Source: Anaerohalosphaeraceae bacterium (GTDB lineage: Bacteria; Planctomycetota; Phycisphaerae; Sedimentisphaerales; UBA12454). From it: a stretch of 64,000 nucleotides of DNA. Shown here one piece after another: positions 18,276 through 59,748 of the stretch; the stretch's first letter is position 1; every line of letters starts with the position of its first letter. Location of the stretch: NCBI GenBank assembly GCA_021108375.1, contig JAIORA010000048.1:66977-130976 (forward strand), in the 5' to 3' direction. The notes below the pieces were generated by a model that saw nothing but the letters and a program-made list of their open reading frames with translations, made no database searches and was not told the DNA's origin. The position numbers were made by a program, and so were the translations under genes.

Positions 18276-18605
18276 TTAGCCACGAAAAATTTAGCCACAG
18301 ATGGACACTGATTTCACAGGCTTGTCCTGAGCGCAGCCGAAGGATTGCACTGATAAAAAAACAAGATACAGAAAAATGGATACCCGCTTTCGCGGGTATG
18401 ACAACTCGGCCGTACCGGCCGAGGCTAAACAGCAATGGGAAAATAAATTCTAATATCTAAATCCTAAACAATTTCAAAACACAAAAATTTAAAATTCAAA
18501 ACAAAAGAGATTGCCGCGCTGCGCTCGCAATGACAAAGTCGTATGCGAACGGGATAATCAATATGTGGATACCCGCAGGGCAAGACCTGCGGGCTAATGG
18601 TGATG
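18276..18605. repeat. Intergenic repeat mosaic between convergent genes
   Basis: CACAGAT-type repeat, CTTGTCCTGAGCGCAGCCGAAGG, GGATACCCGCTTTCGCGGGTATGACA, GCTAA hairpins at 18403-18428 and 18570-18597, heptamers, GCAATGACA module. Confidence 0.88.
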
Positions 18606-18628
18606 TAAGCAATTATTAGAACTACCCT

Positions 18629-20659
18629 TTACTCCTGAGTCTCAGATTTTTTTGCATACTGAGCAATAACCTGTTGCTGAACGTTAGAAGGGACAACCTC
18701 GTAATGACTCAATGTCATAGAGTAACTGCCCTGCCCGCCAGTAACACTCTTTAGCTGGCTATCGTAATTTGAAATCTCCGACAGCGGAACCTGAGCTTTT
18801 ATTGTTATCATATTGCCCGGAAGCATATCCTGGCCCTGTACCCTGCCGCGACGGCCGGATAGGTCGCCCGTAATATCGCCCATATAATCCGCTGGTATCG
18901 TTATTTCGATGTTAACTATCGGCTCAAGCAGGCCCGGCTTTGCCTTTTTGACAGCGTCAGCGAAAGCACCCTTGCCGGCAGCTCTAAAAGCAACTTCCTT
19001 TGAATCAACGGCATGGTACTTGCCGTCATAAATCGAAACCTTTATGTCCTGCATCGGGAAGCCGGCAATGATGCCCGTTTGCATAACATCGTGTATGCCC
19101 TTTACAACCGGAGCTTCAAACTGGCCGGGTATCGAACCGCCGAAAATGTCCCAGGTGTACTGCATTGACGGGTCGGAGCCACGCTCTGCGGGTTCGACGC
19201 GAAGATATACCTCTCCAAACTGGCCTGAACCGCCTGATTGTTTCTTATGGCGATAGTGGCCGTCAGCCTTTGCGGTAATGGTTTCCCGGTATGGAATCTT
19301 GGGCTGTTTGGTGTTGACCGAAATTTTGAATCTTTTTTCCATCTTTGAAAGCATTACTCTCAAGTGCAAATCGCCCATTCCACTGATGACAAGTTCTTTC
19401 GTCTGAACATCGTGGCTGACTTTGAAACAAGGGTCCTCTTCCATCAGCTTATCGAGAGCGGTGCCGATTTTCTGCTCATCGCCACGGGCGGCAGGCTCCA
19501 GAGCCAGGCCGTACATCGGGACGGGAGTCTCCGGCATTTTGAACCTGCCGGCAACGTTGCCATCGTGGATTAAATCGCCAATCTTCAACTCCTCAATTTT
19601 CGCCAGCATAACGATGTCGCCTGCGATAGCCTCGGGAGTTTCGGCAGTCTCAACGCCCTGAGCTTTTAGCGCGTGTCCGGGACGAATAGGTTTTTTGTCG
19701 TGATTGTGCATCATATGGGTATCAGCTTTTAGTGTTCCGCTGAAAATTCTTATCGCTGAAAACTTCATATTCGACCGCGGGTCAAAACCAACCCTAAAAA
19801 TCAATCCTGAAAGCGGCGCGGCGGGGTCAGGCTTAATTCCCGTCTCGTTTTCGCCGTCAATCAATTTGGCAGAGCCGACCTGTGCAGGCGAAGGAAGGCA
19901 ATTAACAATAAAATCGAGCAGCTCTGTTATGCCGGCATCACTTTTAGCTTCTGTAAAAATAATTGGTATTATTGTGCCTGTGGTCATAGCTTTTACGAAA
20001 ACTTCCGCGAGCTTCTCTTTTGATATTTCTTCGCCGCCAAGGTAGCTTTCCATCAACTCGTCATCGGCTTCGATGGCACTTTCGAGCAGGTCGGTATGAG
20101 CGGTGGCGACATCCATTACGGGCGAATCGCCGGAATCATTGTTTACGCAATCGATGACACCGCCTTTGCCGTCAGGAAGGTTTGCACAGCGACACTGCGA
20201 ACCGAAGGTCTGCTGGATGGCTTCAATTAATTCCGGAATATCGATATTCTCAGCGTTCATTTTATTTATAACGATGAACCTGACTTTTCCCGCGTCGCCA
20301 GCAGCGTTGAATAATCTGCGGGTGTTGACTTCGATACCGGCAGAAGCACTAATCACAATCGCGCAGGACTCCACGGCGGGAATGGCACAAAGAGCGGCAC
20401 CGACAAAATCAGGGTAGCCGGGAGTGTCTATAATATTGATAAGTTTACCATTGTGGGTTGTGTGCATCAGCGAAGAATGTATGGAATTGCCGCGTTCCTT
20501 TTCTTCTTCGTCGTAGTCAGAGACGGTGTTCTTCTCCTCGACCGTTCCTAATCTGTTTGTTTGACCGGTTTTGTTCAAAATATACTCAACCAAAGTGGTT
20601 TTTCCGGCTCCGCCGTGCCCTAACAACGCAACGTTGCGAATGTCGTCAATTCCTGCCAC
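18629..20659 (-). CDS. Elongation factor G-like paralog (EF-G2 type)
   Basis: GHGGAGKTT, DTPGY, EEDP, GMGDLHL, IPYRETI, HKKQSGGSGQFG, LLEPI. Confidence 0.92.
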   Translation of the reverse strand: MAGIDDIRNVALLGHGGAGKTTLVEYILNKTGQTNRLGTVEEKNTVSDYDEEEKERGNSIHSSLMHTTHNGKLINIIDTPGYPDFVGAALCAIPAVESCAIVISASAGIEVNTRRLFNAAGDAGKVRFIVINKMNAENIDIPELIEAIQQTFGSQCRCANLPDGKGGVIDCVNNDSGDSPVMDVATAHTDLLESAIEADDELMESYLGGEEISKEKLAEVFVKAMTTGTIIPIIFTEAKSDAGITELLDFIVNCLPSPAQVGSAKLIDGENETGIKPDPAAPLSGLIFRVGFDPRSNMKFSAIRIFSGTLKADTHMMHNHDKKPIRPGHALKAQGVETAETPEAIAGDIVMLAKIEELKIGDLIHDGNVAGRFKMPETPVPMYGLALEPAARGDEQKIGTALDKLMEEDPCFKVSHDVQTKELVISGMGDLHLRVMLSKMEKRFKISVNTKQPKIPYRETITAKADGHYRHKKQSGGSGQFGEVYLRVEPAERGSDPSMQYTWDIFGGSIPGQFEAPVVKGIHDVMQTGIIAGFPMQDIKVSIYDGKYHAVDSKEVAFRAAGKGAFADAVKKAKPGLLEPIVNIEITIPADYMGDITGDLSGRRGRVQGQDMLPGNMITIKAQVPLSEISNYDSQLKSVTGGQGSYSMTLSHYEVVPSNVQQQVIAQYAKKSETQE

Positions 20660-20829
20660 AGTAAAACTCCTCTCAAAACTCAGGGATAATTGTTACTTAA
20701 ACAGCGATAGAACAGGGAATGGTACAGCAAAAAGTTAGTTCGGGCAACATCTTTTTGAAAAGAATTGCCGAAAAACCGCCCCCAAAAAAGGGAATTTGCC
20801 ATTTCCGGCTAATTGTGTAAAAAAAAGTA

Positions 20830-20858
20830 TTGAAAGTTTGTCAATCCGGTTTTATAGT
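20830..20858 (+). promoter_or_regulatory. Sigma70 promoter of the GntR regulator
   Basis: TTGAAA-17 nt-TATAGT; the imperfect palindrome TACAG..CTGTA at about 20874-20895 may be an operator. Confidence 0.55.
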
Positions 20859-20931
20859 ATGGGGTTTGTAAAATACAGTTGGTACAAGACCTGTAATTCA
20901 GTGAACAGTACTTTAAAGAGGAGAGACTTTA

Positions 20932-22038
20932 ATGCTTGAGGACAAAAGCCCCAGTAAGCCTGTATATGCCCATATAAAGGACAAGATACAGAAAATGATT
21001 CAGGCCGAGGGTCTGGCCAGCGGAGACTTTTTGCCCCCTGTGAGAGAGTTAGCCAGCAAGTTCGGCACGACAACAGTAACGGTCAGCAGAGCGACCAGAG
21101 AACTGGCATACGAGGGAAAACTGCTGAGACTGCCAAGAAAAGGGGTCATTGTTTCGCCGCACTTCGACAACCGCGTAAACGAAAAATCCTGGGCGCTTGT
21201 ATTCCCTGGTAATGGGTATTCGTATCCTCAATTTGCCAAGGCGATACGGAATGAAGCAGAGAAAAAAGGCATCTCGGCTGACATAATTTTCTCTTTCGGC
21301 GAGCCGGAAAAGGAACGAAAATCGGTAATAGAGGCTATAAAAAACGGTGTATCGGCTGTTTTGCTGATGCCAGTGTACCCAAGCAGCAAAAATATGATAA
21401 TCCAGAATCTCAACTACCTTGCGGACCTGCCGGTACCTGTGGTCGTAATGGATTACTGGGAGCCCGAAAAGCCGATTTCCGGAGTCGATTTTGTGATGAG
21501 CGATAACTTCTCCGGAGGATACCAGGCTACGCTGCACCTGATAAGGCACGGATACAAAAAAATATCGATAGTCAATACGCCTTCAGAAACGAAACAACTG
21601 TTTACCGAGAGACAAAAAGGCTACGAAACAGCGATGGCAGATTACGGGCTGGAAGTTTTGGATTTGCCCAAAATTACCAGCGAACATCTTGAACACAAAA
21701 TTTTTGACTCCATAGAAAGACATATAACAGCAGGGGTTGAAGCCTTTTTTGTAACAAATGACTACTCGGCGACTATGCTGCTTAGCTCGCTGCGGAAAAT
21801 GAATGTGCGCGTTCCTGATGACGTTGCTTTGATTGGGTACGACAATGCTCCTTTTTCTTCCATCTCACAGCCGAGACTTACAACAATCAGGCCTAACGTG
21901 CTACAGATAGTCCAAAAAGCCTTTGAGGTACTCTGCCACCGGATGGAACATAAAACCCGCGGGAATCACCGTATAATACTTATTCGCCCTGAGATAGTTT
22001 GCAGAGAGAGTTGCGGCAAAAACTGCCATATGCGGTAA
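20932..22038 (+). CDS. GntR-HTH / LacI-type sensor regulator (AraR-like)
   Basis: GDFLPPVRELASKFGTTTVTVSRA HTH; DNFSGGYQATLHLIRHG; VPDDVALIGYDN. Confidence 0.92.
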   Translation: MLEDKSPSKPVYAHIKDKIQKMIQAEGLASGDFLPPVRELASKFGTTTVTVSRATRELAYEGKLLRLPRKGVIVSPHFDNRVNEKSWALVFPGNGYSYPQFAKAIRNEAEKKGISADIIFSFGEPEKERKSVIEAIKNGVSAVLLMPVYPSSKNMIIQNLNYLADLPVPVVVMDYWEPEKPISGVDFVMSDNFSGGYQATLHLIRHGYKKISIVNTPSETKQLFTERQKGYETAMADYGLEVLDLPKITSEHLEHKIFDSIERHITAGVEAFFVTNDYSATMLLSSLRKMNVRVPDDVALIGYDNAPFSSISQPRLTTIRPNVLQIVQKAFEVLCHRMEHKTRGNHRIILIRPEIVCRESCGKNCHMR

Positions 22039-22060
22039 ATCAGGGCGAACAAACACAAAT

Positions 22061-22335
22061 TATTAACCGCGGATTTCACAGATTACGCGGATTTAATCAA
22101 GAAGGTAGAAGGCAGAATCGCCTCGCAATGACAACAACATTGTCCGGCCGCTTCCGCGGCTCGGCTACTAAGCGATGGGAAAAATTGAAATAATTCGCAA
22201 ATACGAACCCCTGCCATAGTAATGGCAGGGCTAACCATTCCGGCGACTTACGTCGCTCGGCTTCTAACAGAAAACACGAACCCCGGCAAACAAGTTGCCG
22301 AGGTTAAATAGATTTCTCTCCCGATAAATCGGGAC
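22061..22335. repeat. Intergenic repeat mosaic
   Basis: CACAGATTACGCGGATT, CCTCGCAATGACA, GTAG-type REP 22141-22169, hairpins 22206-22234 and 22279-22307, CCCGATAAATCGGG. Confidence 0.85.
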
Positions 22336-22343
22336 CAACTTAA

Positions 22344-22414
22344 CTGGGGAACCAGGATTCGAACCTGGAGTAAGTGATTCAGAGTCACTCGTGCTACCGT
22401 TACACTATTCCCCA
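22344..22414 (-). tRNA. tRNA-Gln(CTG)
   Basis: TGGGGAA...TTCCCCA stem; AGTGA-CTCTGAA-TCACT; GGTTCGAATCC. Confidence 0.96.
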
Positions 22415-22483
22415 AATCGGCTCGTACTTTACAACCAATCAGCAATAATTTCAAGGAAATTAAAGTAATAAAATATTTGGCGG

Positions 22484-22512
22484 TTGACATGGCATAAATT
22501 TTATAATAATCT
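22484..22512 (+). promoter_or_regulatory. Probable sigma70 promoter of the kinase operon
   Basis: TTGACA-17 nt-TAATCT. Confidence 0.45.
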
Positions 22513-22671
22513 TCACAGTCTATCGGTTCGGCACTGGCAACACCGACCGACAGGCCCGCAATCGCGGGCAAAGCCAAGAACACCGGCGAAGGAACATCCT
22601 ATATTTTGTACATCTGCAACTTTGTTATTCATCTTAAAATGCTCTAAAAAATACTGAGCCAAAAATAGTTT

Positions 22672-25038
22672 TTGTGTGCGCTGGCTATGGTTAGAAAGAG
22701 AAAAAAACTATTGGGGAGCGAAAAGGGAACGGGCAAAGTTTCGTTGCTGTTTGCCTATGTAATCGTCCTGGTTGCGATTCTGTACATTTTCACAATTATC
22801 AACCAATTAGCGAACCATCCTGAGAAGCCGAAATTATTCAGTGAATTAATTTTTACAATTGCCATAGTATCTACCGCTATGGCGATATTTTTGATATCAA
22901 AATGGTACGAGCTGAACAACACACAAAAAGAACTTAAAGCCCAGAACGAAAAACTTAAACTTCAGGCAATGCTGCTCAATGAAATAGGCGACGGAATTAC
23001 CGCGACCGATCTGGATGGCAATATCACATACGTCAATAAAGCTTCGGCAAGACATATCGGAAGAACGCCGGAAGAAATCATCGGTAAAACGGTCGATTTT
23101 TACGACGATAATCCTGCCTTGGGAGCAACACAGCAGGAAATAAAAAATACAACTCTTTTCAAGGGCGAGTGGAAAGGCGAAGTAGTCAACAGAACCAAAG
23201 ACGGCCACGAAGTGATACTGGAATGCCATACGTGGCTGATAACAGACGAGCAGGACAGGCCGAGCGGAATGTGCGGTATTTCCAGAAATATAATGGAACG
23301 AAAAATTCAGCAAATGGAACTGCTGAAACGCAAACGGTACCTTGAAGCACTGGATGAATTATCCACCCTTTTGCTGCCCTCGACAGAGGAGGCCCGTTTT
23401 GAAGATTTTCTGTCAATTGTCGGCCCTGTATCGGGCGCTTCCTGTGTGAGTATTATATTAAGGCCGCTCGGAAATAATGGGGATGATACATTAATTCATC
23501 TTTTGGCAAGATGGACAAAAAATGGGATGGTAAAAAACTTTTCGAGCAATCCAAAACGGCACAACTTTTTCATTAATACGATATGGCCCAAAGTATATAA
23601 AGAGTTTTTGCGGGAAAAATCCTGTTATATTGCCATCAATAAAACACTCCCCAAAGAAGAGTTGGAATTCTGGCGGGAAGGCAATATCAAAAGCGTAATA
23701 GCTATACCGATAATAATCGATGGTGAGATATTCGGCTTTGTCGCTTTTGACAACTGTGAAGAAATCAAAAAGTGGCCCAAACTCGAAATGGATTTTCTGA
23801 ACTCCGCCGTTTCCAATTTGTCCCACACTATAAAACGCAGGCAAATCAAAGAACAGCTCGTAACACAGAGAGATTTTGCCAAAAAAATCATTGAATCGGC
23901 ACAGGCGATAGTTTTGGTACTCGATAAAGATGCCAATATAGTGCAATTTAACCCCTATTTCGAGAAAATTTCCGGATACAAACTCGAAGAGGTCAAGGGC
24001 AAATGCTGGTTCGACACGCTCCTTCTGCCCGAAGACCGACAAAGGATACGAGATGCATTCAACCAGGCTGCTTCGTCGATTGATGTTAAAGGCAAAATTA
24101 ATCCAATTGTTACCAAAAACGGTCATATCAGGCATATCGAGTGGCGAAGCAGAACTCTTAAAGACTCAAACGGCAAGGTGATAAGCATTCTTTCGACTGG
24201 ACAGGATGTGACAGAGAGAATGCAAAATGAGCAGAAATTAAGAGATGGCCATCTGGAACTCGAAAGACAGGTCAATTCACGAACAGCAGAGCTTCGCAAT
24301 ACTAATCTTGAACTCCTGGAAGCTATCCAGGCAAGAAATCATATCGAAAAAATCCTAAAGGAAACAGAGAAGCTGGCCGCCGCCGGCAAACTGGCAGCTC
24401 AGATCGCACACGAAATCAACAACCCTCTCGCGGGAATAAAAAATTCCTTTCTGCTTATAAAAGACGCTATACCTGCTGAGCACAAATATTTTGAATATGT
24501 AGGTATGATAGACAGGGAAATAACGAGAGTTTCTCAAATTGTAAGACATATGTTCGACCTGTATCGACCCGACACTCAGTCTGCTGAAAGGTTTCGGGTT
24601 GGAGATACTATCAGGGAAGTTGTAACGCTGCTGAAAGCAGCTATGAATGAGAAAAATATCAAACTGGACGTTATCTGTGATGAGAATATGAAGGTCGTGC
24701 TTTCAGAAGCCCTTTTCAGACAGGTGATTTATAACCTGCTTCAAAATGCCGTGGAGGCTTCGCCTGAGAACGCGACGGTGAGCATTGAGGCAGGGACAAA
24801 CAATGGGCATTTAAAACTTGCCATAGCCGACAATGGACGCGGTATTGATGACAGTATAAAAGAAAAGATATTCGACTCATTTTTTACCACCGGCCAGGGC
24901 GGCCCCAGAAGCGGACTGGGGCTTGGGCTTGCGATTACAAAAGATATTGTAAGTGCTATGCGGGGTAAGATTGATTTTGTAAGCAAAGTAAACAAGGGGA
25001 CAACCTTTAATATAGAAATACCGGCAAAATATGATTGA
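22672..25038 (+). CDS. Membrane PAS-GAF-PAS sensor histidine kinase
   Basis: Two TM helices; PAS motifs; IAHEINNPL H-box; NLLQNA, DNGRGI, FFTT, GLGLGL. Confidence 0.95.
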   Translation: MCALAMVRKRKKLLGSEKGTGKVSLLFAYVIVLVAILYIFTIINQLANHPEKPKLFSELIFTIAIVSTAMAIFLISKWYELNNTQKELKAQNEKLKLQAMLLNEIGDGITATDLDGNITYVNKASARHIGRTPEEIIGKTVDFYDDNPALGATQQEIKNTTLFKGEWKGEVVNRTKDGHEVILECHTWLITDEQDRPSGMCGISRNIMERKIQQMELLKRKRYLEALDELSTLLLPSTEEARFEDFLSIVGPVSGASCVSIILRPLGNNGDDTLIHLLARWTKNGMVKNFSSNPKRHNFFINTIWPKVYKEFLREKSCYIAINKTLPKEELEFWREGNIKSVIAIPIIIDGEIFGFVAFDNCEEIKKWPKLEMDFLNSAVSNLSHTIKRRQIKEQLVTQRDFAKKIIESAQAIVLVLDKDANIVQFNPYFEKISGYKLEEVKGKCWFDTLLLPEDRQRIRDAFNQAASSIDVKGKINPIVTKNGHIRHIEWRSRTLKDSNGKVISILSTGQDVTERMQNEQKLRDGHLELERQVNSRTAELRNTNLELLEAIQARNHIEKILKETEKLAAAGKLAAQIAHEINNPLAGIKNSFLLIKDAIPAEHKYFEYVGMIDREITRVSQIVRHMFDLYRPDTQSAERFRVGDTIREVVTLLKAAMNEKNIKLDVICDENMKVVLSEALFRQVIYNLLQNAVEASPENATVSIEAGTNNGHLKLAIADNGRGIDDSIKEKIFDSFFTTGQGGPRSGLGLGLAITKDIVSAMRGKIDFVSKVNKGTTFNIEIPAKYD

Positions 25039-25795
25039 TGATAAATTAAAAAAAGGCAATTTCGGCAGGATACTACTCGCGGATGATGAGGATACTTTTC
25101 TCAAAGCAACCGCGGAGCTTATCCGTAAAGAAAACTACTCGTGCGATTGTGCAAATACCGGCAAAGAAGCTATCGAGAAGATGGCTGCTGAAGATTATGA
25201 TGTTCTTGTCGCTGATATAAAAATGCCCGGCAATACGAATCTGGAAATGATACGGGAAATTGCCAGAATCAGGCCTGGTATAGAAATGATACTGATAACC
25301 GGCTACCCCACGCAGCAAAGTGCTATCGATGCCATTCATATGCCCGTCTCTGTGTATATGATTAAGCCGATAGATTTTGACGAACTTTTGAATAACATAT
25401 CAAAGGCGATGAAAAACCGCATCCTTCACAGGACTGTTGTGCAGACAAAACAGAACCTTACTCAGTGGCTGGCAGAAATACAACGCATTGAAGGCAGCCT
25501 GGCAGGAGCCAACCCTGAGATATTCAAAACAGCCTTGAAAAGTTATCTTGAAATAACGACCGCTCGAATAAATACAACCTTTTCAGAAATTCGCAGGATT
25601 ACCGGGATATTCGACACGTTTAACAACACCCCCGTTTGCAATATGATGCAATGTCCCAATCTGAATGAACTGAGCGATGCAATCAGGCAGGCAATTGAAA
25701 GTATCAAAACAACAAAAGATGCCCACCGGTCAAAACAGTTGGGACAATTGCGAACAAAATTGGAGAAACTGGAAAAAAACATAACAAAAATTTAA
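25031..25795 (+). CDS. Response regulator with uncharacterised helical output domain
   Basis: ILLADDE, ADIKMPG, ITGY, IKPID. Confidence 0.9.
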   Translation: MIDDKLKKGNFGRILLADDEDTFLKATAELIRKENYSCDCANTGKEAIEKMAAEDYDVLVADIKMPGNTNLEMIREIARIRPGIEMILITGYPTQQSAIDAIHMPVSVYMIKPIDFDELLNNISKAMKNRILHRTVVQTKQNLTQWLAEIQRIEGSLAGANPEIFKTALKSYLEITTARINTTFSEIRRITGIFDTFNNTPVCNMMQCPNLNELSDAIRQAIESIKTTKDAHRSKQLGQLRTKLEKLEKNITKI

Positions 25796-26086
25796 GACTT
25801 CTTGGCCTTTTATGCCGATAATATCCGTATAACAAGGAGCAATTTCACCGCTGCCCTTTAGGGCAATAAAATGCGTACTGTGTTATGACAACGAAAAACT
25901 TTTTGTAAAACAATGCAGGTGCGTGTATTATTTTCGACAGGGAGAAACGAGCATTGTAATCTGAAATATCTCTGTGTGCAAAACCCGAAATAAATTTTAC
26001 GGCATAACGAATTTCCATAGGATGTTGTTTATCCGGGACAAGAACACAACGATATTAATAGTAAGCATCTACTGAAAGGAACTGCT

Positions 26087-26833
26087 ATGCCAACTTTGGG
26101 AAAGATATTGCTCGCGGACGATGAACAAATTTTCCGCGACTCCACAGCCGAACTCCTCAGGCGAGAAGGTTATCACTGCGATTGTGTGCCGGATGCGCAC
26201 GCAGCAGCGGAGAAATTAACGAAAGAATCCTACGACTTGCTGATAGCCGATATTAAAATGCCGGGCAATCCTGACCTCGAACTCATTAAAAAACTCTCCG
26301 AGTTGGCCAAGGGTACCCCTGCTATACTGGTAACAGCTTTTCCAACACAATCGTCAGCGATAGAATCAGTAAGATTGCCAGTCTCGGCATATATGGTAAA
26401 ACCCATAGATTTCGAAGAACTCAAAAATAATGTTGAAGCGGCAATAAGAAAAAAACAACTGTTCAATACCGTCCTGAATACCAGAACAAGACTTGAGCAA
26501 TGGCATAGCGACATCGAGCAAATGGAAAAATTTTCGCGGGAAAACGAGGATAAAGAGTTTACGGCATCAGTAAAGAACTTTCTTGACCTGACGCTGTGTA
26601 ATATCAGTGCTGCTTTTTCGGATGTCAAAAACCTCACTGCAATACTAACCGATGAAACTTCGACTCCGCCAATATGCAATCTGATGAGCTGTCCTAAACT
26701 GTCAAAAATGAGCGACGGGATTCTTGAAACAGTAAGAACGCTTGAAAAAACAAAAAGCTCGTTTAAGTCCAAAGAATTGGGACTGTTACGAGAAAAACTG
26801 GAAGAAATCCTCAGAAAAAACAAAAAAGTTTAA
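26087..26833 (+). CDS. Response regulator, paralog of 25031..25795
   Basis: ILLADDE, ADIKMPG, VTAF, VKPID; similar to the paralog over its full length. Confidence 0.9.
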   Translation: MPTLGKILLADDEQIFRDSTAELLRREGYHCDCVPDAHAAAEKLTKESYDLLIADIKMPGNPDLELIKKLSELAKGTPAILVTAFPTQSSAIESVRLPVSAYMVKPIDFEELKNNVEAAIRKKQLFNTVLNTRTRLEQWHSDIEQMEKFSRENEDKEFTASVKNFLDLTLCNISAAFSDVKNLTAILTDETSTPPICNLMSCPKLSKMSDGILETVRTLEKTKSSFKSKELGLLREKLEEILRKNKKV

Positions 26834-26944
26834 ACTATATCGGCGGTTTACCCGATATCTATTCGTATAGAGATATATAAACAACGAGCTGGCCATATAA
26901 AAGGCTGTCTCGCCTTTGCGTGCAGGTAATAGACTGGTAAGCAG

Positions 26945-27008
26945 AAGGCACAATCAATATGAGGGTTGGAAATTTTCCGACTCCCCTGTTGGCTGTGCCT
27001 TTTTTTTT
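26945..27008 (+). terminator. Long-stem intrinsic terminator
   Basis: AGGCACA...TGTGCCT closing stem, inner GTTGGAA/TTCCGAC pairing, followed by a T-run. Confidence 0.7.
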
Positions 27009-27543: not shown

Positions 27544-27593
27544 TAAGTTACAGCTATTTTTGCCAGAAAATATTTTTTGGCTCCCTTTTCAAC

Positions 27594-47945: not shown

Positions 47946-47949
47946 ATTT

Positions 47950-51179: not shown

Positions 51180-51228
51180 TTTTTATTGCCTTTCAAAATT
51201 CCAGGTTCTATTTTCTATCTTCTGTCCG

Positions 51229-52476
51229 TTACATTAAGGACGTAATAATCTTTACAATCGGCAGGAATATAGCCAGAACGATTGTTCCGACAATAGCACC
51301 GAGTACGAGAATCATAATCGGCTCAAGCAGACTCATCAGCGAAGCGACCAAAACATCGACATCTTCATCGAAATTGTTAGCGATTTTTATAAGCATTTTG
51401 TCGATATCGCCAGTCTCTTCGCCAACATCAATCATATTCACGATAAGGCCATCAACGGTTTTGCTCTGCTTAAGAGGATTGGCAAAGGTATCGCCCTGCC
51501 GAATCGAGCTGTGTACTTTGCGGAGCATATTCGAATAAACCTCGTTGCCTGCCGTCTCTGCGGTAATGTTAATTGCTTCGAGAATCGGAACACCCGCACT
51601 GATAAGTGTACCCAGCGTTCTTGTCCAGCGGGCAACGGAAGTTTTGTAAACAAGGGTCCCGACTGCGGGCATCTTGAGATTTATCGTATCCAGTACGAGC
51701 CTGCCCGTTGTAAACTGCCTTATCCCTCTTATCATAAATACATACCCAAATGGAACTGCCAGCATCACAGCCCAGCCCCACTGAAAAGCTATCCAGTTAC
51801 TGGCAGCAACCAGCCCTCTTGTAAGGCCGGGCAAATCTCCGCCGGTCATCTCAGCCAGAATGGTACTGAATTTCGGAATAACCACAATCATCAGGCCCAT
51901 AACGATTGCAAAAGCCGCAAAAAGAACAACGACAGGATAAACCATTGCGCCTTTGATTTTAGCTCTAAGACGCTGTGCCTTCTCCATAAAGTCCGCCAGG
52001 CGAGCGAGAATTACATCCAGCACGCCGCCAACTTCGCCGGCAGCAACCATATTAACGAACAGCCTGTTAAATGTTCTGGGATATTTGCCCAGTGCCTCCG
52101 AAAGCGTTGAGCCGCTTTCAATATCATCAGAGACGTAGCCGATAACGCGTTTGAATGTGCCGGGCTTTTGCTGCTCTTCGAGAATACGCAGCGACCGAAG
52201 GATCGGCAAACCTGCATCCTGCAACGTCGAAAGCTGGCGGGCAAACTGTGTCAACAGCTTGATTCTCACCTTGCCTCCAGAGCCTCGACGAGAACGAACA
52301 CGCGTAGCGGTTGCGCCTTTCTTCTGTCGGATGCCGCCTTTAGCCTTGGGGGGCTTGGTCGGATAATAGCCCATATTACGAATCTTGCTCAGGGCCTCTT
52401 CACCGCTTAAGGCCTCTACATTACCTTTTACTTCCTGGCCGTTTGAATCCAGAGCTTCGTATTGAAAAACCGGCAT
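51229..52476 (-). CDS. pilC: PilC/GspF platform protein
   Basis: FARQLSTLQDAGLPI, AGEVGG, AMVYP, VGEETG, LLEP. Confidence 0.95.
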   Translation of the reverse strand: MPVFQYEALDSNGQEVKGNVEALSGEEALSKIRNMGYYPTKPPKAKGGIRQKKGATATRVRSRRGSGGKVRIKLLTQFARQLSTLQDAGLPILRSLRILEEQQKPGTFKRVIGYVSDDIESGSTLSEALGKYPRTFNRLFVNMVAAGEVGGVLDVILARLADFMEKAQRLRAKIKGAMVYPVVVLFAAFAIVMGLMIVVIPKFSTILAEMTGGDLPGLTRGLVAASNWIAFQWGWAVMLAVPFGYVFMIRGIRQFTTGRLVLDTINLKMPAVGTLVYKTSVARWTRTLGTLISAGVPILEAINITAETAGNEVYSNMLRKVHSSIRQGDTFANPLKQSKTVDGLIVNMIDVGEETGDIDKMLIKIANNFDEDVDVLVASLMSLLEPIMILVLGAIVGTIVLAIFLPIVKIITSLM

Positions 52477-52558
52477 CTTATTACCCTTTCAACTACTTCC
52501 TGTATCAATTAGTCTCAGCCCAAAGGCCGAATCCTAAACTCATAACTCATAACTATTT

Positions 52559-54316
52559 CTACTGTTCCTCAGCGATTGTTTCTTTAACCACTTCCTCTAT
52601 CGTTGTGATTCCGTCATATATCGCGTGCAGCCCCTTTTCGCGGAGAAGTCTCATTCCGGTCTTTTTCGCTGCCGACCGAAGCACATTAGTCGAGGCGTGG
52701 TTCATAACCAATTCTCGCATCTCATCGTTAAAACTCATTATCTCATAAATGCCAAGCCTGCCGCGATAACCGGTATTATTGCACTGGTCGCAGCCCTTGC
52801 CGTAATAAAACGACTTGCCCTTAACATCATCGAGGGTAAGGCCTAACTCCATCAACTGCTCTTCGCCAGGCTCGTAAGGCTCTTTGCAATTTGCACATAT
52901 CTTTCTCACTAAACGCTGAGCAACAACACCTTCCACCGTTGCGGTTATAAGGAACGGCTCAAGTCCCAAATCCAAAAGCCTCGCGACAACACTGGGAGCA
53001 TCGTTTGTATGCAGCGTTGTGAAAACCAGATGGCCCGTAAGCGATGCCTGCGCAGCAATCTCAGCGGTTTCAAGGTCTCGAATTTCACCAACTAAGATAA
53101 CATCCGGGTCCTGACGCAAAATCGACCTGAGACACTTGGCAAAGGTCAGCCCAATCTCCGGCTGCATCTGCACCTGGATAAGGCCGTCAATATCATATTC
53201 GACCGGGTCTTCGGTCGTAATCAGCTTCCTGTCAATAGTGTTTAGCTCTTTCAGTGCCGAGTACAGCGTTGTGGTTTTGCCGCTGCCGGTAGGCCCGGTT
53301 ACAATAACGACACCGTTTGGCCTGCGAATAAGCTGGCTAACGATACCGATATCTTCCGCGTCAAGCCCAAGGTTTTCGAGCTTTAAATCGACCTGGCTTC
53401 TGTCAAGAACACGAAGCACAACGCTTTCGCCGAACATTGTCGGCAATATACTCACACGCAAATCAACCTGATGCCCCTGCACCGTCAATGGGATACGACC
53501 ATCCTGCGGCAGACGACGCTCAGCAATATCGAGGTTGGCCATAACTTTGATTCGAGAGCTAAGCGCCACCGAAATATGCCTTGGCGGAGGAACCATCTCG
53601 TACAAAACACCATCTATCCGATAACGCATTTTGAATTCTTCCTCGAAAGGCTCAAAATGAATATCGGATGCCTTATCACGAATCGCCTGAAGCAAAACAA
53701 GATTGAGAAGTTTCCTTACAGGATTGGAATCGGCAAGCTCCTGAAGCTCATCAAGGTCGATACTCTGGTCTCTGCCCTGAAATTCTGAAAGAAAATCATC
53801 CCCTTCAAGCGCGCCGATAAGGTCGTTAATACTCTCGTCGTCTTCCGAATAATATCTTTCAAGCAATTCACTGATATCGCTCGGCATCGCAACCTTGGCA
53901 TTAACAGTAAAGCCCATCAAGGTAGTCAAATCATCGGTTGCCTTAAAATTATCAGGGCTGTCAATAGCAATCGTCATAGTCTTTTTATCTTTGTCATACT
54001 CAATCGGAACTGCGCGATAAGTGGTTGCCATCTGCGATGAAACCTGCTCGATTATCTCTTTTGAAATTTCCGCACCAGCCAAATCCACAAATTCCATCCC
54101 CCTCTGAGCGGCAAGAGCTACCCTGAGCTGCTTTTCGTCTATGAAGCCAAGCTCAACCATTATCTCGCCTATCAGTTTTTTCTCTGCGCTTTTGCCCTGA
54201 ACAGAAAGACACTGATGAACTTTTTCTCTGGTAAGAATCCCCATCTTAATAAGGATTCTTCCGAGATGCCTGCCCCGCAACTGCTCAATCGGAACATTTC
54301 TTTTAGCCATTTTCAA
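52559..54316 (-). CDS. pilB: PilB/GspE assembly ATPase
   Basis: ASDIHFEP, ERRLPQDGR, GPTGSGKTT, LRQDPD, TLHTN, tetra-Cys. Confidence 0.95.
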   Translation of the reverse strand: MKMAKRNVPIEQLRGRHLGRILIKMGILTREKVHQCLSVQGKSAEKKLIGEIMVELGFIDEKQLRVALAAQRGMEFVDLAGAEISKEIIEQVSSQMATTYRAVPIEYDKDKKTMTIAIDSPDNFKATDDLTTLMGFTVNAKVAMPSDISELLERYYSEDDESINDLIGALEGDDFLSEFQGRDQSIDLDELQELADSNPVRKLLNLVLLQAIRDKASDIHFEPFEEEFKMRYRIDGVLYEMVPPPRHISVALSSRIKVMANLDIAERRLPQDGRIPLTVQGHQVDLRVSILPTMFGESVVLRVLDRSQVDLKLENLGLDAEDIGIVSQLIRRPNGVVIVTGPTGSGKTTTLYSALKELNTIDRKLITTEDPVEYDIDGLIQVQMQPEIGLTFAKCLRSILRQDPDVILVGEIRDLETAEIAAQASLTGHLVFTTLHTNDAPSVVARLLDLGLEPFLITATVEGVVAQRLVRKICANCKEPYEPGEEQLMELGLTLDDVKGKSFYYGKGCDQCNNTGYRGRLGIYEIMSFNDEMRELVMNHASTNVLRSAAKKTGMRLLREKGLHAIYDGITTIEEVVKETIAEEQ

Positions 54317-54649
54317 ACTCCATCTCTAAATTAGAAATCATACACCTTGTAACTTAGATTTCTCTCTCTAATATACTATACGCACATAAACTCATATAAA
54401 AAAGGAAATTATGCGTAAGACATCTGGTTTTTGCACTTTCTCAGACAAATTAAGTCCTTAATTGTTCTGTTGATATATACTAAATCGGCAAAATAAGTAT
54501 GCTGCTGAAGGTATTTAAGGACTTAAGGAACAACAACTAAAGGTCTTTGTTGCGAATGACCGGGAAACAATCAAATAACAGGACAAAAAGAAGCGGAATA
54601 TCAACGATTCTCATTTGACTTTCAGAGCATTTTTATAAGACATTGCCAT

Positions 54650-54717
54650 TTAGCCCTGCCTTTCCAAAGGCCGGGTCATTTCGATGTTGAATGTTAAACG
54701 TTCGATTGTTCGATGTT
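54650..54717. repeat. TTAG hairpin plus TTCGATG heptamers
   Basis: ttagccctgcctttccaaaggccgggt; ttcgatgttgaatgttaaacgttcgattgttcgatgtt. Confidence 0.6.
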
Positions 54718-54737
54718 TTCGTTTTTCGTCATTCCCC

Positions 54738-55877
54738 TTACTGGTCCGAATCCCCCAGTACCGGCCCTAAGTTGTCAAGCTGCCTGCGCATATCCTCGTT
54801 TCTTCCTCCCAATTTCTCCTCGGCTTTTTCAAGACACGCAGCCGGCTGTCTTGCCTTGTCGAGCATTTCTTCCAGCGATATCTTGTCAGCGTCATACAAT
54901 TTCCAGAGATGGTCATCAAGTAGCTGCATACCAAGGCTTTTACCCGTCTGAATACTTGATTCTATACGATACGTCTTGTTTTCCCGTATAAGGTTAGCAA
55001 TTGCCGGCGTAACAACCATAAATTCATAGGCCGCCACACGGCCTTTACCGGTTTTAAGCGGACAAAGCGCCTGGCTGAGAACCGCTATCAGATTAGTACT
55101 GAGCTGTACACGAATCTGCTCCTGCTGGTCAACGGGAAAGGCATCTATTATTCGGCTTATCGTCCCCTGGCAACCTGTGGTATGCAGAGTTCCGAAGACA
55201 AGGTGTCCGGTTTCAGCAGCACTTACCGCATTTTCCATTGTCTCAAGGTCGCGAAGCTCACCGACCAAAATTACATCAGGGTCCTGACGCAGCGCCCTTC
55301 TCAAAGCCTCAGCAAATGTCGGCACATCAAGCCCGACTTCCCTCTGATTTATAATGGATTTTTTGTGCTGATGATAATACTCAATAGGCTCTTCAACGGT
55401 AATGATATGCCTATCAAGATTTTCATTGATATAATTAATCATACTGGCCAGCGTAGTGGTCTTGCCGCTGCCGGTAGGGCCGGTAACAAGAAAAAGTCCT
55501 CTCGGTCGCCTGCACAATGCGGCGCAAACTTTCGGCAAACCAATCTTCTGAAACGAAAGCAGTTCAGTGGGTATCAGCCTTAATACCATCGTGATATTAC
55601 TTTTTTGCCGGAAAATTGCTGTACGAAACCTGCCCGCATCACCGAACGCGAAACCAAAGTCCGTTCCGCCGTGCTCCTGCAATTCCTGCTGATTCTTTTC
55701 GGGCGTAATACTCTTCATCAGGCTCGTTGTATCTTCCGGGCCGAGAATTTTAGTCTCAAGCGCCCTCAATCTGCCGTGTATCCTGAGTATCGGCGGCCTG
55801 CCAACGGTCAAATGAAGGTCCGAACCGCCCATCTTGATACAAGCCTCTAACAGTCTGTCAATATGTACCGTAGCCAT
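54738..55877 (-). CDS. pilT: PilT retraction ATPase
   Basis: GSDLHL, GPTGSGKTTTLA, INQREVG, ALRQDPD, AAETGHLVFGTLHT, IANLIRE. Confidence 0.96.
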   Translation of the reverse strand: MATVHIDRLLEACIKMGGSDLHLTVGRPPILRIHGRLRALETKILGPEDTTSLMKSITPEKNQQELQEHGGTDFGFAFGDAGRFRTAIFRQKSNITMVLRLIPTELLSFQKIGLPKVCAALCRRPRGLFLVTGPTGSGKTTTLASMINYINENLDRHIITVEEPIEYYHQHKKSIINQREVGLDVPTFAEALRRALRQDPDVILVGELRDLETMENAVSAAETGHLVFGTLHTTGCQGTISRIIDAFPVDQQEQIRVQLSTNLIAVLSQALCPLKTGKGRVAAYEFMVVTPAIANLIRENKTYRIESSIQTGKSLGMQLLDDHLWKLYDADKISLEEMLDKARQPAACLEKAEEKLGGRNEDMRRQLDNLGPVLGDSDQ

Positions 55878-55912
55878 CTGCGTTTTCCATTAACTATAAT
55901 AACAATTTTAAA

Positions 55913-56372
55913 TTAACCGCCTTCGACGGGTTTTCTGCCTCCACATTTCCTATCTCACCCGCACCGCCATTAGCCCGTAGGTCTTGCCCTGCGGGTTGTT
56001 GCATATTTCCTATCTCGCTCGCATCGCCGTTTAGCCCCGGTATCACTATGCCGGGGTTGCTTTTCATTTAGCCCTGCCATTACTACGGCAGGGTTTCTTC
56101 GCAAGGGTTACCGCATTCCCACCGACCTTGTCATTGCGAGGCCGATAGGCCGGGCAATCTCAACCCGCACACACATAACCCCTTCGGGGTTAAATATAAT
56201 AGCCCCGTGTGAGCGAAGCGAAACTCGGGGTAAAAGAAACATTCCTAAACCCACCAACCCCATAGGGGTTGAATAACCATATTTTTGTCATACCCGCGAA
56301 AGCGGGTATCTATTTTTTATACTTTTTTAAATCAGTGCAATCTGCGTAATCAGTGTTTAAATAATCCGTATC
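55913..56372. repeat. Largest intergenic repeat mosaic
   Basis: TTAG hairpins at 55970, 56031 and 56068; GTCATTGCGAG..GCAATC; AACCCC..GGGGTT pair; GTCATACCCGCGAAAGCGGGTATC; AATCAGTG-type repeat. Confidence 0.9.
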
Positions 56373-56384
56373 TGAAATTTTCTG

Positions 56385-58097
56385 CTATTCAAGCATAAGT
56401 CCTTCTGCCTGCGAATGCCTTGAAACCTCCTCAGGCGTTGTAATGCCCTTGAAAACTTTATCTCTGCCATCCATCAAAAGCGTTTTCATTCCGCCGGCGA
56501 CAGCAACTTTACGCAACTCCGATGCCGGTGCTCTGGCAAAAGCAAGCTCGCGAATTTCATTATTCATCTCAAGTATTTCAAAAATACCCAATCGGCCTTT
56601 ATAGCCGCTGCCTCCGCACTTAGTACAGCCGGCACCTTTATAAAGCGGATACTTTCTTATATCATCCGGATTTATATTAAGCAGCCTCAGATAATGCGGG
56701 TCGGGGTGTTCGTCAAGCACTTTGCACGCCGGGCATATTTTCCTTATAAGTCGCTGCGCAAGAATCGCCTGAATGGAACTTGCCACAAGAAACGGCTTTA
56801 CGCCCATATCAATTAAACGTGTAATAGCACTTGGTGCGTCGTTGGTGTGAAGAGTGCTAAAAACCAAATGGCCTGTAAGAGCCGCCTGAATAGCAATATC
56901 GGCAACCTGCGAATCTCGAATTTCACCAACGAGTATAATATTCGGAGCCTGACGCAGCATAGAACGCAGGATTTTTTCGAAGGACAACCCGATGTCGTGC
57001 CTGACCTGGCACTGGTTTATGCCGGTAACATTATACTCAACAGGGTCTTCTGCTGTAATAATTTTCTTGTCCGGCTGGTTCAACTCCTTAAGAGCCGAGT
57101 AAAGCGTCGTACTTTTACCACTACCCGTCGGGCCGGTAACGAGAAAAATGCCGTTAGGCCTTTTAATTATCTTCAAAAACTTCTGGTGGTCTTCGTCGCC
57201 CAATCCGAGTGCCTGAATGCCGATATTAATTGATTCGGGTTCAAGAATACGAAGCACGATACTTTCGCCGTGATAGCCCGGCAGTGCCGAAACTCGAAAA
57301 TCTATTTTGCTTTTATCGATTTCACGCTGAATTCTGCCATCCTGCGGCAGTCTGCGCTCGGATATATCCATACCCGACATAATTTTGAGCCTGGCCATTA
57401 CAGATGCCTGCATATTCTTAGGAATGCTGTCCCTTTGAGAACAAACGCCGTCAACACGATAACGAATCCGGATTCGGTCGGACATCGGCTCGATATGAAT
57501 ATCACTGGCCCCAATGTGGACAGCTTCGTCTATCATAAGGTTCACCAGCCTGATAATCGGGCCTTCGTCATCCTCGCTGGCAGATTCGGCCTTGCGAATT
57601 TCAGCTTCTAAGGAATGACCTTCTTCTTCAAGCTCAGCCGCGGTGGCATCGATACTGCTTCGCACATCATCGAGATTGCGGTCGATGAAGGCACGGATTT
57701 TCGTCTTACTCCCAACGCTGCAATCAATTTCGCTGTTAAGCCGAAACCGCAGAACATCAAGCATATCCAAATCCAGAGGTTCGTTGGTCAAAAGCTGTAT
57801 TCTGCCATTTTTCTCACCGAGCGGAACAACACAGTACTTTTGAATAACATCTTCCGGCACAAGAGCCATCGTACTCTTGGAAATCGGGTGTTTATCGAGG
57901 TTAACATAGGGCATACCCAACTGGTGAGCAAGAGCCTTACAGATATTATCTTCAGAAACCAGACCAAGCTCCACGAGAGTCTCGCCGAGCCTTCTGTGGC
58001 TTTCTTGGGCAGTTTTCAGCGTCTCGATGAGCGATTGCTTATCGATAAGTCCGCTTTTATACAGTATTTCGCCTAATTTTCGTCGTTTTTTTGACAT
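56385..58097 (-). CDS. Second PilB/GspE ATPase with MshEN-like N-terminus
   Basis: RKLGEILYKSGLI..RRLGETLVELGLV; GPTGSGKST; LRQAPN; TLHTNDA. Confidence 0.93.
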   Translation of the reverse strand: MSKKRRKLGEILYKSGLIDKQSLIETLKTAQESHRRLGETLVELGLVSEDNICKALAHQLGMPYVNLDKHPISKSTMALVPEDVIQKYCVVPLGEKNGRIQLLTNEPLDLDMLDVLRFRLNSEIDCSVGSKTKIRAFIDRNLDDVRSSIDATAAELEEEGHSLEAEIRKAESASEDDEGPIIRLVNLMIDEAVHIGASDIHIEPMSDRIRIRYRVDGVCSQRDSIPKNMQASVMARLKIMSGMDISERRLPQDGRIQREIDKSKIDFRVSALPGYHGESIVLRILEPESINIGIQALGLGDEDHQKFLKIIKRPNGIFLVTGPTGSGKSTTLYSALKELNQPDKKIITAEDPVEYNVTGINQCQVRHDIGLSFEKILRSMLRQAPNIILVGEIRDSQVADIAIQAALTGHLVFSTLHTNDAPSAITRLIDMGVKPFLVASSIQAILAQRLIRKICPACKVLDEHPDPHYLRLLNINPDDIRKYPLYKGAGCTKCGGSGYKGRLGIFEILEMNNEIRELAFARAPASELRKVAVAGGMKTLLMDGRDKVFKGITTPEEVSRHSQAEGLMLE

Positions 58098-58226
58098 AAC
58101 TCCCTAAACTATCTAAATTAACACTGAGCATTATAGCAATATCGGCTAAAATATCAAACTGCCCAAGCGCAATTTTAACAAAATAATTGCAATTTAGCCA
58201 GTTATAGTACGAGTGAAATCGCACTC

Positions 58227-59480
58227 TCAGCCTGATGAAGCACTCAAACGCAATCTTAGTAAGTTAAGCGAAGTTTGTGCGGTTCTGGTCCGAATAAAAT
58301 CGCGATTATTTCTACGAAAATTGAATTCCTTTGTTTCGGTACCATTTTTCGAAGCGATGGATATATACACGAGTCCCACCGGTTTTTGCTCGTTCCCACC
58401 GCCTGGCCCGGCAATTCCGGTAACAGCTATCGCCCAATCGGCACCTGATACAGCCCTTGCCCCATCTGCCATAGTCGAGGCAACTTCGGCGCTGACCGCT
58501 CCATATTTTTCTATTATCTCTTTATTCACCTTGAGTTGAGTAATCTTGGCTTCGTCAGCATATGTTACCCAGCCGTAATTAAAAAACCTGCTCGCTCCCG
58601 AAACATCCGTAATCATTTTCGCGATAAGTCCGCCGCTGCACGACTCCGCAATCGCCAGCGTCTGATTGGTACTGATAAGTTTTTCCGCCACAACGTCAGC
58701 AAGATTTTGCTCGCCGGTGCCAAAGGCAAGCTCGCCGAGAATTTCGATAAGTTTTTCTTCGTCCCGCCCCGCCATTTCCACTGCCTTTTCTCTGGATTTG
58801 CCCTTCGAGACGATATGCAGCGTTATTACTCCCGCATCAACGGTGCAATTTATCAGCGGGTTCCTGTTTCGCTCCATCAGGTCGCCGAGCATCTCAGCAA
58901 CAGTCGATTCACCAATACCAGTACATCGGATTTTTTTTATCACAATATATTCATCAGAGGATATTTTTTTTATCTCACCTGAGACCGTTTCCGAAAACAT
59001 CCTCTTCATTTCGGAAGGAACGCCCGGCATAGCAGCAAGAATCTTTTTACCATCTTCGTAAAGAATCCCCGGCGCAGTACCCAGCCCGTTATCTATTGGC
59101 AAGGCCTTTTTCGGCAGAAGTGCCTGGACAACATTCTTTCGCGGCATCGCGTAGCCCAATAGCTCAAAATACCGCTCCATCTTCGCAACTATTTCTTCGC
59201 GCAAAACGAGTTCACAATTTAGAAATGCGGCGATTGCGTTGCGGGTTATATCGTCGTCGGTCGGGCCAAGTCCGCCAGTGAGCAGAATAATGTCCGCCTC
59301 TGCCGATGCTTTGACGAGCCTGTCGGCTATCAGTTCGACATCATCACCAACTATATAGACACTCTCGGCAGCTATGCCCATTGAGACAAGCTCGCCGCAC
59401 AACCATGCCGAATTGCTATCAACCGTCTGGCCGTTAAGAAGTTCATTGCCGATACTGATTATTGACGCTTTCTTTGCCAT
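58227..59480 (-). CDS. cinA: CinA (competence/damage-inducible; NMN deamidase domain)
   Basis: IGNELLNG, TGGLGPTDDD, PGVPSEM, AESCSGG, GAVS, TGIAGPGG. Confidence 0.95.
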   Translation of the reverse strand: MAKKASIISIGNELLNGQTVDSNSAWLCGELVSMGIAAESVYIVGDDVELIADRLVKASAEADIILLTGGLGPTDDDITRNAIAAFLNCELVLREEIVAKMERYFELLGYAMPRKNVVQALLPKKALPIDNGLGTAPGILYEDGKKILAAMPGVPSEMKRMFSETVSGEIKKISSDEYIVIKKIRCTGIGESTVAEMLGDLMERNRNPLINCTVDAGVITLHIVSKGKSREKAVEMAGRDEEKLIEILGELAFGTGEQNLADVVAEKLISTNQTLAIAESCSGGLIAKMITDVSGASRFFNYGWVTYADEAKITQLKVNKEIIEKYGAVSAEVASTMADGARAVSGADWAIAVTGIAGPGGGNEQKPVGLVYISIASKNGTETKEFNFRRNNRDFIRTRTAQTSLNLLRLRLSASSG

Positions 59481-59502
59481 CTATTCTATCCACATCGCCA
59501 CA

Positions 59503-59748
59503 GTAGCCGAGCGACGGAAGTCGCCGGACAATCTTTTCTTTAGCCCCTGGATCTTGCCCCAGGGGTATCCACATACTGATTACCACGTCCGCACAAGACT
59601 TTTGTCATACCCGCGAAAGCGGGTATCCACTTTTCATAAAACGGGTCTTGGCCACAAGACCGATTCGATATTCTATCTACGGCCTACTGTATTCTATCTT
59701 CTTAAAATAAATCAGCGTAATCAGTGTTTAAATAATCCGTAGCTAATT
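59503..59748. repeat. Intergenic repeat mosaic
   Basis: GTAGCCGAGCGACGGAAGTCGCCGGA; TTAG hairpin 59540-59567; GTCATACCCGCGAAAGCGGGTATCC; heptamers; AATCAGCGTAATCAGTG. Confidence 0.88.

Follow-up and report, generated by a model that had tools for sequence, protein, structure and literature searches.

Two intergenic gaps in a 64,000-nt stretch of DNA from an Anaerohalosphaeraceae bacterium (GenBank assembly GCA_021108375.1, contig JAIORA010000048.1, positions 66,977 to 130,976; this whole stretch is called the window) contain nearly the same linker between hairpins which differ from one gap to the other. Are hairpins exchanged at fixed boundaries around a conserved linker, or are the two loci, named A and B, put together from repeat units that occur in various combinations? 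We consider it very probable that A and B are copies of a composite repeat of about 70 nt, private to this lineage, which lie beside independent palindromes tagged with GTCAT. The result is a mosaic like the neisserial intergenic mosaic elements (NIME) and the bacterial interspersed mosaic elements (BIME), and not a case of hairpin swapping.

The composite repeat consists of a TTAG-tagged hairpin with a TCTTGY loop, a 20-nt piece (L1) and a 22-nt piece ending in GTCAT (L2), and the adjoining GTCAT palindrome is of the ATTGC class at A and of the ATACC class at B. The genome is rich in small palindromic repeats of at least three superfamilies, which are strung together in the intergenic gaps: G (tag TGTC/GTCAT), E (GTAG-tagged repetitive extragenic palindromes (REPs) with a gene resembling a REP-associated tyrosine transposase (RAYT)) and S (tag TTAGCC). 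The modules have separate copy numbers, neighbours and taxonomic ranges, and their junctions lie at the hairpin tags.

Extent of the similarity between loci A and B

The initial annotation had paired positions 18530-18572 on the minus strand with 59565-59608 on the plus strand, with 6 mismatches and 1 indel, and its letters and coordinates are correct. In the alignment the linkers are 43 and 44 nt long and the indel is one T in the T run before GTCAT. Both loci, A on the minus and B on the plus strand, have the same order of TTAGCC hairpin, linker of 43-44 nt and GTCAT hairpin. When up to 3 mismatches are allowed, an 18-nt piece of the linker is found at two places in the window, compared to 0.04 expected occurrences, and two or more occurrences were seen in 0 of 100 shuffles. 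The repeat search of the window reports the pair as repeat I2, with 63 nt and 79% complementarity.

When the flanks are included in the alignment, the similarity of A and B starts at TTAGCC and stops in GACTTT before GTCAT, covering about 70 nt at roughly 80%. On either side of this unit only scattered matches are found, and the similarity is not regained past the downstream hairpin. The flanking hairpins named in the initial annotation do differ between A and B and fold as it had predicted; in single-strand folding of both loci the two hairpins form and the linker remains unpaired.

Misassembly of one locus had been named in the annotation as a possible source of the pattern. At locus A, an 87-nt contig from a public sequencing run matches 18511-18597 exactly at depth 49, near the depth of 55-57 of the flank contigs, and thus the junction is not an assembly artefact of this record. 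The public reads were used as contigs of three runs from one study, which break inside the repeats and are blind to rare variants, and many joints listed in these contigs stem from other copies of the repeats.

The initial annotation took the conserved linker between differing hairpins for part of a stable scaffold, with hairpin bodies being converted in place between TTAG and GTCAT. We regard this reading as extremely improbable, and the absence of similarity beyond the downstream hairpin already speaks against it, as the supposed scaffold ends at GTCAT.

Modules of the composite repeat and their joints

The upstream hairpin of copy A is located at 18572..18597 on the minus strand and consists of TTAGCC followed by CGCAGG / TCTTGC / CCTGCG and GG; the hairpin of copy B, at 59540..59565 on the plus strand, has the arms CCTGGA / CCCAGG. 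Both are equally long and have the same TCTTGC loop, and differences between them are found at 7 of 22 positions, in the two arms of the stem. The arms of copy A are fully complementary and those of copy B have one A.C mismatch. They belong to a family within the S superfamily, which we call the TCTTGY family (AGCC, 6-nt arm, loop TCTTGY, 6-nt arm, GG), which has 81 members genome-wide, four of them in the window, at 12.5, 18.6, 55.97 and 59.54 kb.

The stems of this family evolve by compensatory change. At stem pair 6-21, 48 copies have C-G and 23 have G-C; at pair 7-20 there are 31 copies with C-G, 23 with T-A and 24 with T-G, and at pair 8-19 there are 43 with G-C and 33 with A-T. Across the family 95.9% of the cells are paired, compared to a mean of 82.9% and a maximum of 86.6% in 1000 shuffles of the 3' arms. 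Non-canonical pairs are G.T in 35 cases and A.C in 15; as G.T prevails over A.C, intermediates exist and one strand folds better than the other. The upstream hairpins of A and B are thus two stem variants of one family and have not been exchanged. Their connection through G.T intermediates is the very outcome which the initial annotation had set against its own proposal of exchanged hairpins, and it likewise argues against replacement in place.

Downstream of the TCTTGY unit there is an S hairpin in 35 copies, a G hairpin in 21 and a GTAG-tagged E hairpin in 11; the remaining 14 copies have no such neighbour. Besides these changing neighbours, an ATTTC hairpin, a TCTTGY hairpin with its tail and an E hairpin form a three-module block that is found nearly unchanged in four or five places (G000:C28:187 and 483, with further copies on C2, C14 and C28), and therefore multi-module blocks are also copied as units. 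The arms are also found in swapped order within the TCTTGY family, CCTGGG/CCCAGG in 15 copies and CCCAGG/CCTGGG in 5, and several families of TAGCC hairpins have copies with either loop orientation (for example TTTACAAA in 40 versus TTTGTAAA in 9 copies, GATTCATC in 23 versus GATGAATC in 7). Loop orientation and arm swaps point to flips within the palindrome.

The linker itself breaks internally into two pieces with separate partners, which does not agree with a scaffold kept in place. L1, the 20-nt 5' part (18552..18571 on the minus strand in copy A, 59566..59585 on the plus strand in copy B), is the family-specific tail of the TCTTGY hairpin. L2, the 3' part of 22 nt ending in GTCAT, is found at 18530..18551 (minus strand) in copy A and at 59586..59608 (plus strand) in copy B, where it has 23 nt due to an extra T before GTCAT. 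The genome contains 60 copies of L2. Of these, 24 are preceded by the end of a G hairpin, 23 by an S tail and 13 by other sequence. A recognisable G hairpin follows 47 of the 60 copies, with all classes represented, and in three copies the GTCAT leads straight into TTAGCC. Seen from the other side, the L2 core is located upstream of only 32 of 453 G hairpins.

L2 variants track the upstream class, with the observed association reached in 1 of 2000 permutations, and not the class of the hairpin downstream, where the observed value was reached in 1642 of 2000. Identical 22-nt L2 strings are joined to two to four hairpin classes, one of them to four. The incongruence between linker and hairpin that the initial annotation had predicted is therefore real, and it is located at the GTCAT joint.

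This independence of L2 and hairpin speaks for conversion in place. It would also be expected from site-specific joining at GTCAT, in which units ending in L2 land at the 5' edge of a hairpin, or hairpins insert after the GTCAT of L2, and the fixed boundary reflects the specificity of an enzyme instead of a chance juxtaposition. We judge this second explanation to be rather unlikely. A G hairpin is found after 47 of 60 L2 copies, yet L2 lies upstream of only about 10% of the G hairpins, and identical L2 strings on two to four hairpin classes would fit such a joint. Furthermore, the three L2 copies with GTCAT directly before TTAGCC resemble unoccupied sites, and the indel between A and B sits in the T run right before GTCAT. 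A candidate activity is also described: SsnA, a small GIY-YIG nuclease, binds the extended dRS3 (NTS) and its relatives, the Ssn-related motifs (SRM), as single-stranded DNA and cuts a few nucleotides upstream of the motif, with the three bases before the palindrome weighing most (PMC11893778; statements on this paper, here and below, draw on part of its text). Against site-specific joining, the enrichment is partly built in, as the L2 search pattern itself ends in GTCAT, no target duplication and no pair of empty and filled sites was seen, and no Ssn-like gene was found in the assembly. Moreover, Ssn is described as a nuclease which modulates transformation and not as a transposase (PMC11893778).

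The downstream hairpins belong to the G superfamily, whose members start with GTCAT and have a stem that begins with the AT of this tag. The genome contains about 457 of them, in the stem classes ATTCC (132), ATTGC (125), ATTTC (118) and ATACC (82); other five-letter anchors, used as control, give 199-313 matches in total, which are totals only and are not split by the first five letters of the arm. The common frame is ttTGTCAT-stem-loop-stem-ATC(C/T)aTTTTTt, and the T run following the hairpins has the consensus CCATTTTTT. At locus A the G hairpin is of the ATTGC class, with GTCAT tag, interrupted stem and ATC tail (18509..18534, minus strand), and is accompanied by a T-rich tail at 18444..18508 on the same strand. 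At locus B it is of the ATACC class, with TGTC tag, 8-bp stem, GAAA loop and CCA tail (59603..59630, plus strand), followed by its own tail at 59631..59752.

We compared pairs of G loci with at least 80% identity in each flank, taken as 30 nt before and 40 nt after the hairpin; the class is identical in 117 of 121 such pairs, with 22% expected by chance. The four pairs with different class speak for replacement in place; three of them are a single compensatory base pair, ATTCCC versus ATACCC. Pairs which share only one flank differ in class more often, 342 out of 952 for the upstream and 263 out of 688 for the downstream flank. The locus B hairpin recurs together with its own tail of about 120 nt at 56276-56386 (repeats D5 and D7), with another upstream neighbour, and in six other places of the genome at 80-89% identity. 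Pieces of the T-rich tail of the locus A hairpin are found at 79-88% identity in other genera and families of the order. The tails are not class markers, as both tail motifs tested occur after all four G classes. Since class is kept in nearly all pairs with both flanks shared, and the hairpins of A and B carry their own tails, there is no hairpin swapping in a fixed frame. The fixed boundaries of the initial annotation are real as unpaired tags heading two hairpin superfamilies, TTAG and GTCAT.

Taxonomic range, genomic setting and candidate enzymes

The linker pieces and the adjoining hairpin have different taxonomic ranges. With up to 2 mismatches, L2 has 58 matches in this genome and 2 matches at chance level, with 2 mismatches, in 150 other genomes of the order, where a control pattern has 3. 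The exact L2 pattern was found three times in 185,579 species genomes, in a gammaproteobacterial metagenome-assembled genome (MAG), an Acidobacteriota MAG and Vibrio; these unrelated matches were taken as chance without inspection of their loci. In metagenomes it has one match, with no adjoining hairpin and judged to be chance. The combination of S hairpin and L1 has 71 matches here and none in 60 other genomes of the order. Neither linker piece was found in the other genomes of the order that were searched; both are therefore private and have multiplied recently.

A 24-nt pattern for the SRM-type hairpin has 142 matches in this genome and none for the control pattern. It is present in 24 of 25 genomes of the family, with 0-27 matches each, and in 14 of 200 other genomes of the phylum, with 1-19 each; the controls have none in either set. 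The hairpin adjoining the linker is therefore old or widely travelling. Their number in this genome exceeds that in its relatives of the family 5- to 100-fold. Among the relatives' matches listed, all have the ATTCCC form, and judging from these sequences the ATACCC form may occur only in this genome.

The assembly comprises 2.36 Mb in 55 contigs with 45% G+C and 93% completeness, and the window is part of contig 5. Two genes converge on the gap of locus A (18276-18628), a dehydroquinase/shikimate dehydrogenase fusion gene and a gene resembling elongation factor G (EF-G). The gap is 353 nt long and full of repeats. Four relatives keep the gene pair, and their orthologous gap measures 0 to about 70 nt and contains no more than one plain hairpin; this lineage has therefore gained the array. 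Locus B lies in the gap 59481-59750, which is flanked by the minus-strand genes cinA and ychF. No comparable gap was found among the 25 family genomes searched, all of which have ychF and only two the cinA side, at 2-8 kb from ychF.

Besides the composite repeat, both gaps contain further modules. At locus A another TTAGCC-tagged hairpin with the stem CTCGGCCG (18404..18427, minus strand) abuts a second G hairpin, of the ATACC class (18376..18403, minus strand; repeat I5). At locus B a GTAG-tagged E hairpin (GTAGCCGAGC...GCCGGA; repeats I9 and I12) is located at 59503..59528 on the plus strand. The third TCTTGY unit in the window (55962..56024, plus strand; I1) has a tail that runs into another TTAGCC hairpin, with no L2, and the fourth (12513..12556, minus strand; I4) is followed by a different spacer and a G hairpin of the ATTCC class. 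Many arrays are bordered by the direct repeats AATCAGTG / AATCTGCG / CACAGAT, roughly heptameric and T-rich on one strand, which form a further module family and are found in the window at 18276-18345, 22060-22095, 56339-56381 and 59710-59752. Open frames of 74-122 amino acids cross the arrays, at 59374-59742 on the plus strand and at 18211-18460 on both strands; these are most likely repeat artefacts that would be miscalled as hypothetical proteins. Elsewhere in the window there are tandem paralogues, namely three or four repeats of a unit of about 950 nt at 3400-6650 (3.4-6.6 kb) and three T2SSE-type secretion ATPase genes at 53000-57400 (53-58 kb).

The setting of locus A bears on a functional explanation, in which the hairpins are selected RNA elements such as terminators or stabilisers of mRNA ends and the linker is kept as functional RNA. 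The array lies downstream of the EF-G-like gene in the orientation of hairpin followed by T run, T runs follow the G hairpins, and the G.T excess in the S family shows one strand folding better. In other bacteria REPs are mostly located after 3' ends (PMC3733652, of which parts are considered here and below). Genome-wide, in gaps between genes of the same direction, 132 cases have the GTCAT strand antisense to the genes, as at locus B, and 67 have it in sense orientation, as counted with crude open reading frame (ORF) calls. Most transcripts would therefore carry the hairpin without the following U run. The GTCAT strand is also on the C-rich strand in 255 versus 115 cases, a bias by GC skew which is inseparable from that relative to the genes. 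In addition, the four relatives do without an array at the orthologous gap, no Rfam family was found at threshold at A or B and only three tRNAs in the window, and the linker folds into nothing. A role at RNA ends is possible at locus A and fits poorly genome-wide, and as an account of the repeats we consider selection as RNA very unlikely.

We favour the mosaic of modules, and the enzymes that could move them were searched for in the assembly. The patchwork may have been built by single-strand, hairpin-directed insertion, with Y1/HUH-type enzymes acting on the GTAG- and TTAG-tagged units, and recombination at hairpin edges, or nicking at the GTCAT edge, may re-join other units. The GTAG-tagged E hairpins number 179 in the genome, as compared to 8 when the reversed genome is used as control; the letters preceding the 179 copies are most often TAGA (58), TAGT (47) and TAAA (29). 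A 161-aa ORF with HVH and YIINQ motifs (G000:C4:92958-93518), distantly related to Y1/HUH enzymes, is bracketed by inverted GTAG-tagged E hairpins. It scores 20.5 bits for Y1_Tnp, with a Pfam cut-off of 23, and 19.2 for REP_Tyr_transpos, with a cut-off of 80. A paralogue is located on C7, near 7769-7963. Both are candidate RAYT-like genes for the E family; the bracketed ORF has the RAYT arrangement, with a weak gene call.

Two clear Y1 transposase genes are present, which NCBIfam models assign to IS200/IS605 and which reach 29.9 and 33.2 bits of the 80 for a REP-associated transposase. One of these, on C12, lies between inverted TAGCC-tagged hairpins that are found nowhere else in the genome. 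Beside the S hairpins of the TCTTGY family no Y1 (HUH) gene was found. Within the assembly PF01541 matches only a 469-aa frame, plus weakly a 2249-aa frame, and ten GIY-YIG domains from relatives gave a best tblastn E-value of 0.096. Short GIY-YIG frames exist in nearly all of the 25 family relatives, mostly several in each. Since the assembly is 93% complete and in 55 contigs, the gene could be unassembled. A single IS110-type gene was found. IS110-type recombinases are the type that integrates a neisserial phage into dRS3. As the gene found here is located on a contig of 1.5 kb with visibly higher G+C and no hairpins at its ends, it is uninformative. Integron-like gene cassettes were set aside by reasoning, as the segments are 20-70 nt long and gene-free; no integrase search was made.

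Several of these results weigh against the mosaic that we prefer. No insertion event was caught and no empty and filled sites could be compared, because there is no closely related genome or metagenome contig with the private modules. The independent assortment of L2 and hairpin is equally expected from site-specific insertion or exchange at GTCAT. The Y1-like ORF inside the E hairpins stays below the Pfam cut-off, the C12 Y1 gene has only its own two hairpins, the S and G families have no associated Y1 gene, and neither PF01541 nor tblastn found a short, Ssn-like GIY-YIG gene in the assembly. The orientation counts, moreover, inherit the crudeness of the ORF calls.

The mosaic nevertheless removes the claim of an undescribed, site-directed conversion of hairpins. 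Such a mechanism is not needed, as comparable mosaics have been described (NIME, BIME, SRM) and A and B look as expected for a REP/SRM mosaic, a class known from Neisseria and other bacteria. Three points reach further than what has been described, and all three are leads on how mosaics grow. L2 assorts independently of the hairpin it abuts and tracks its other neighbour, which would place the recombination or insertion joint at the hairpin tag. The covariation of stems through G.T intermediates argues that one strand is used single-stranded. The highest count of Ssn-type hairpins in the family is found in the one genome where no Ssn-like gene was found. By analogy with the nick site of Ssn, GTCAT hairpins might act as joints or landing pads, with units ending in L2 joined at their 5' edge near this site; we hold this to be quite improbable at present. 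If true, such joining would be how these mosaics are built, and the coincidence of most hairpins with no detectable Ssn gene would hint that Ssn normally holds the repeats in check.

Comparison with known repeat systems

By their sequence the downstream hairpins are of the known kind of CGTC-tagged REPs, dRS3 and SRM. The SRM search motif (HGTCWYN(0-2)YYVSBRHN(0-5)WNVSBRGN(0-2)RNCYNB, PMC11893778) is found in 153 places of the genome, compared to 11 in a reversed control. The locus B hairpin at 59603-59630 (TGTCATACCCGCGAAAGCGGGTATCCAC) fits the motif of Chenal et al. 2025, as do those at 18376-18403 and 56286-56313. The ATTGC hairpin of locus A (18509-18534) is outside the published motif, and thus the fit is for B only. 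High copy number and clustering of the repeats between genes are further shared with SRM. The single-domain GIY-YIG gene of the SRM system (cd10448, about 90-100 aa, often flanked by motifs) was not found here, and nothing in the parts of PMC11893778 compared corresponds to the linker or the S hairpin.

dRS3 has the form ATTCCC-N8-GGGAAT. The locus B hairpin, ATACCC-N8-GGGTAT, is one compensatory pair away from it, and locus A has a different stem. The ATTCCC variant, with 87 other copies of its class in the genome within the dataset of the both-flank comparison, is identical in every letter to a stretch of gonococcal pilE-region sequence (PMC7593972). As a sequence string in papers, the hairpin was found only in this gonococcal construct sequence.

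The CGTC-tagged REPs, often with TGTC, have stems of 8-9 bp starting with AT, loops of 4-5 nt and a CCA tail, and their family 1 was equated with the neisserial dRS3 by Di Nocera et al. (PMC3733652). The locus B hairpin matches this form exactly (TGTC + ATACCCGC / GAAA / GCGGGTAT + CCA). Locus A shares the tag and the AT start and differs in its interrupted stem and its CTC tail. Both the GTAG and the CGTC superfamily of REPs have been reported in Planctomycetes, with several families in one genome (PMC3733652), and several families coexist here too. The E hairpin at 59503-59528 carries the GTAG tag, and the S hairpins of A and B carry TTAG. In the parts of PMC3733652 considered, REPs are mainly inverted dimers, in contrast to the mostly head-to-tail arrays with conserved linkers in this genome. 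Hairpins headed by a conserved tetranucleotide are also shared with the REP/RAYT and IS200/IS605 systems (NF047646, NF033573, PF01797). The 161-aa ORF inside inverted E hairpins and the second Y1 gene inside inverted TAGCC-tagged hairpins resemble the REP/RAYT layout. The difference is that both strong Y1 matches score as IS200/IS605 and not as REP-associated transposase.

In overall architecture the nearest known counterparts are SRM/dRS3 hairpins set in NIME-like mosaics, to which REPs of the GTAG type are added. NIME arrays consist of short GC-rich inverted repeats alternating with families of AT-richer repeat segments; the arrays vary dynamically in length, and recombination is the presumed source of new segment subfamilies (PMC1797815, on the part of the paper considered). 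In that part, Bentley et al. 2007 stated that arrays of this type had not been seen outside Neisseria (PMC1797815). In the genome studied here 24 of the 60 L2 copies have a G hairpin on both sides, in the way that two dRS3 copies frame an RS element. The differences are that three hairpin superfamilies are mixed instead of one, that A and B are bounded by a TTAGCC hairpin on one side, and that the host is not Neisseria. The BIMEs of E. coli consist of palindromic units joined by a few conserved extra-palindromic motifs in various combinations. The palindromic units of BIMEs alternate in orientation and those described here are co-oriented, and the sequences are unrelated. The combinatorial logic of the two is the same.

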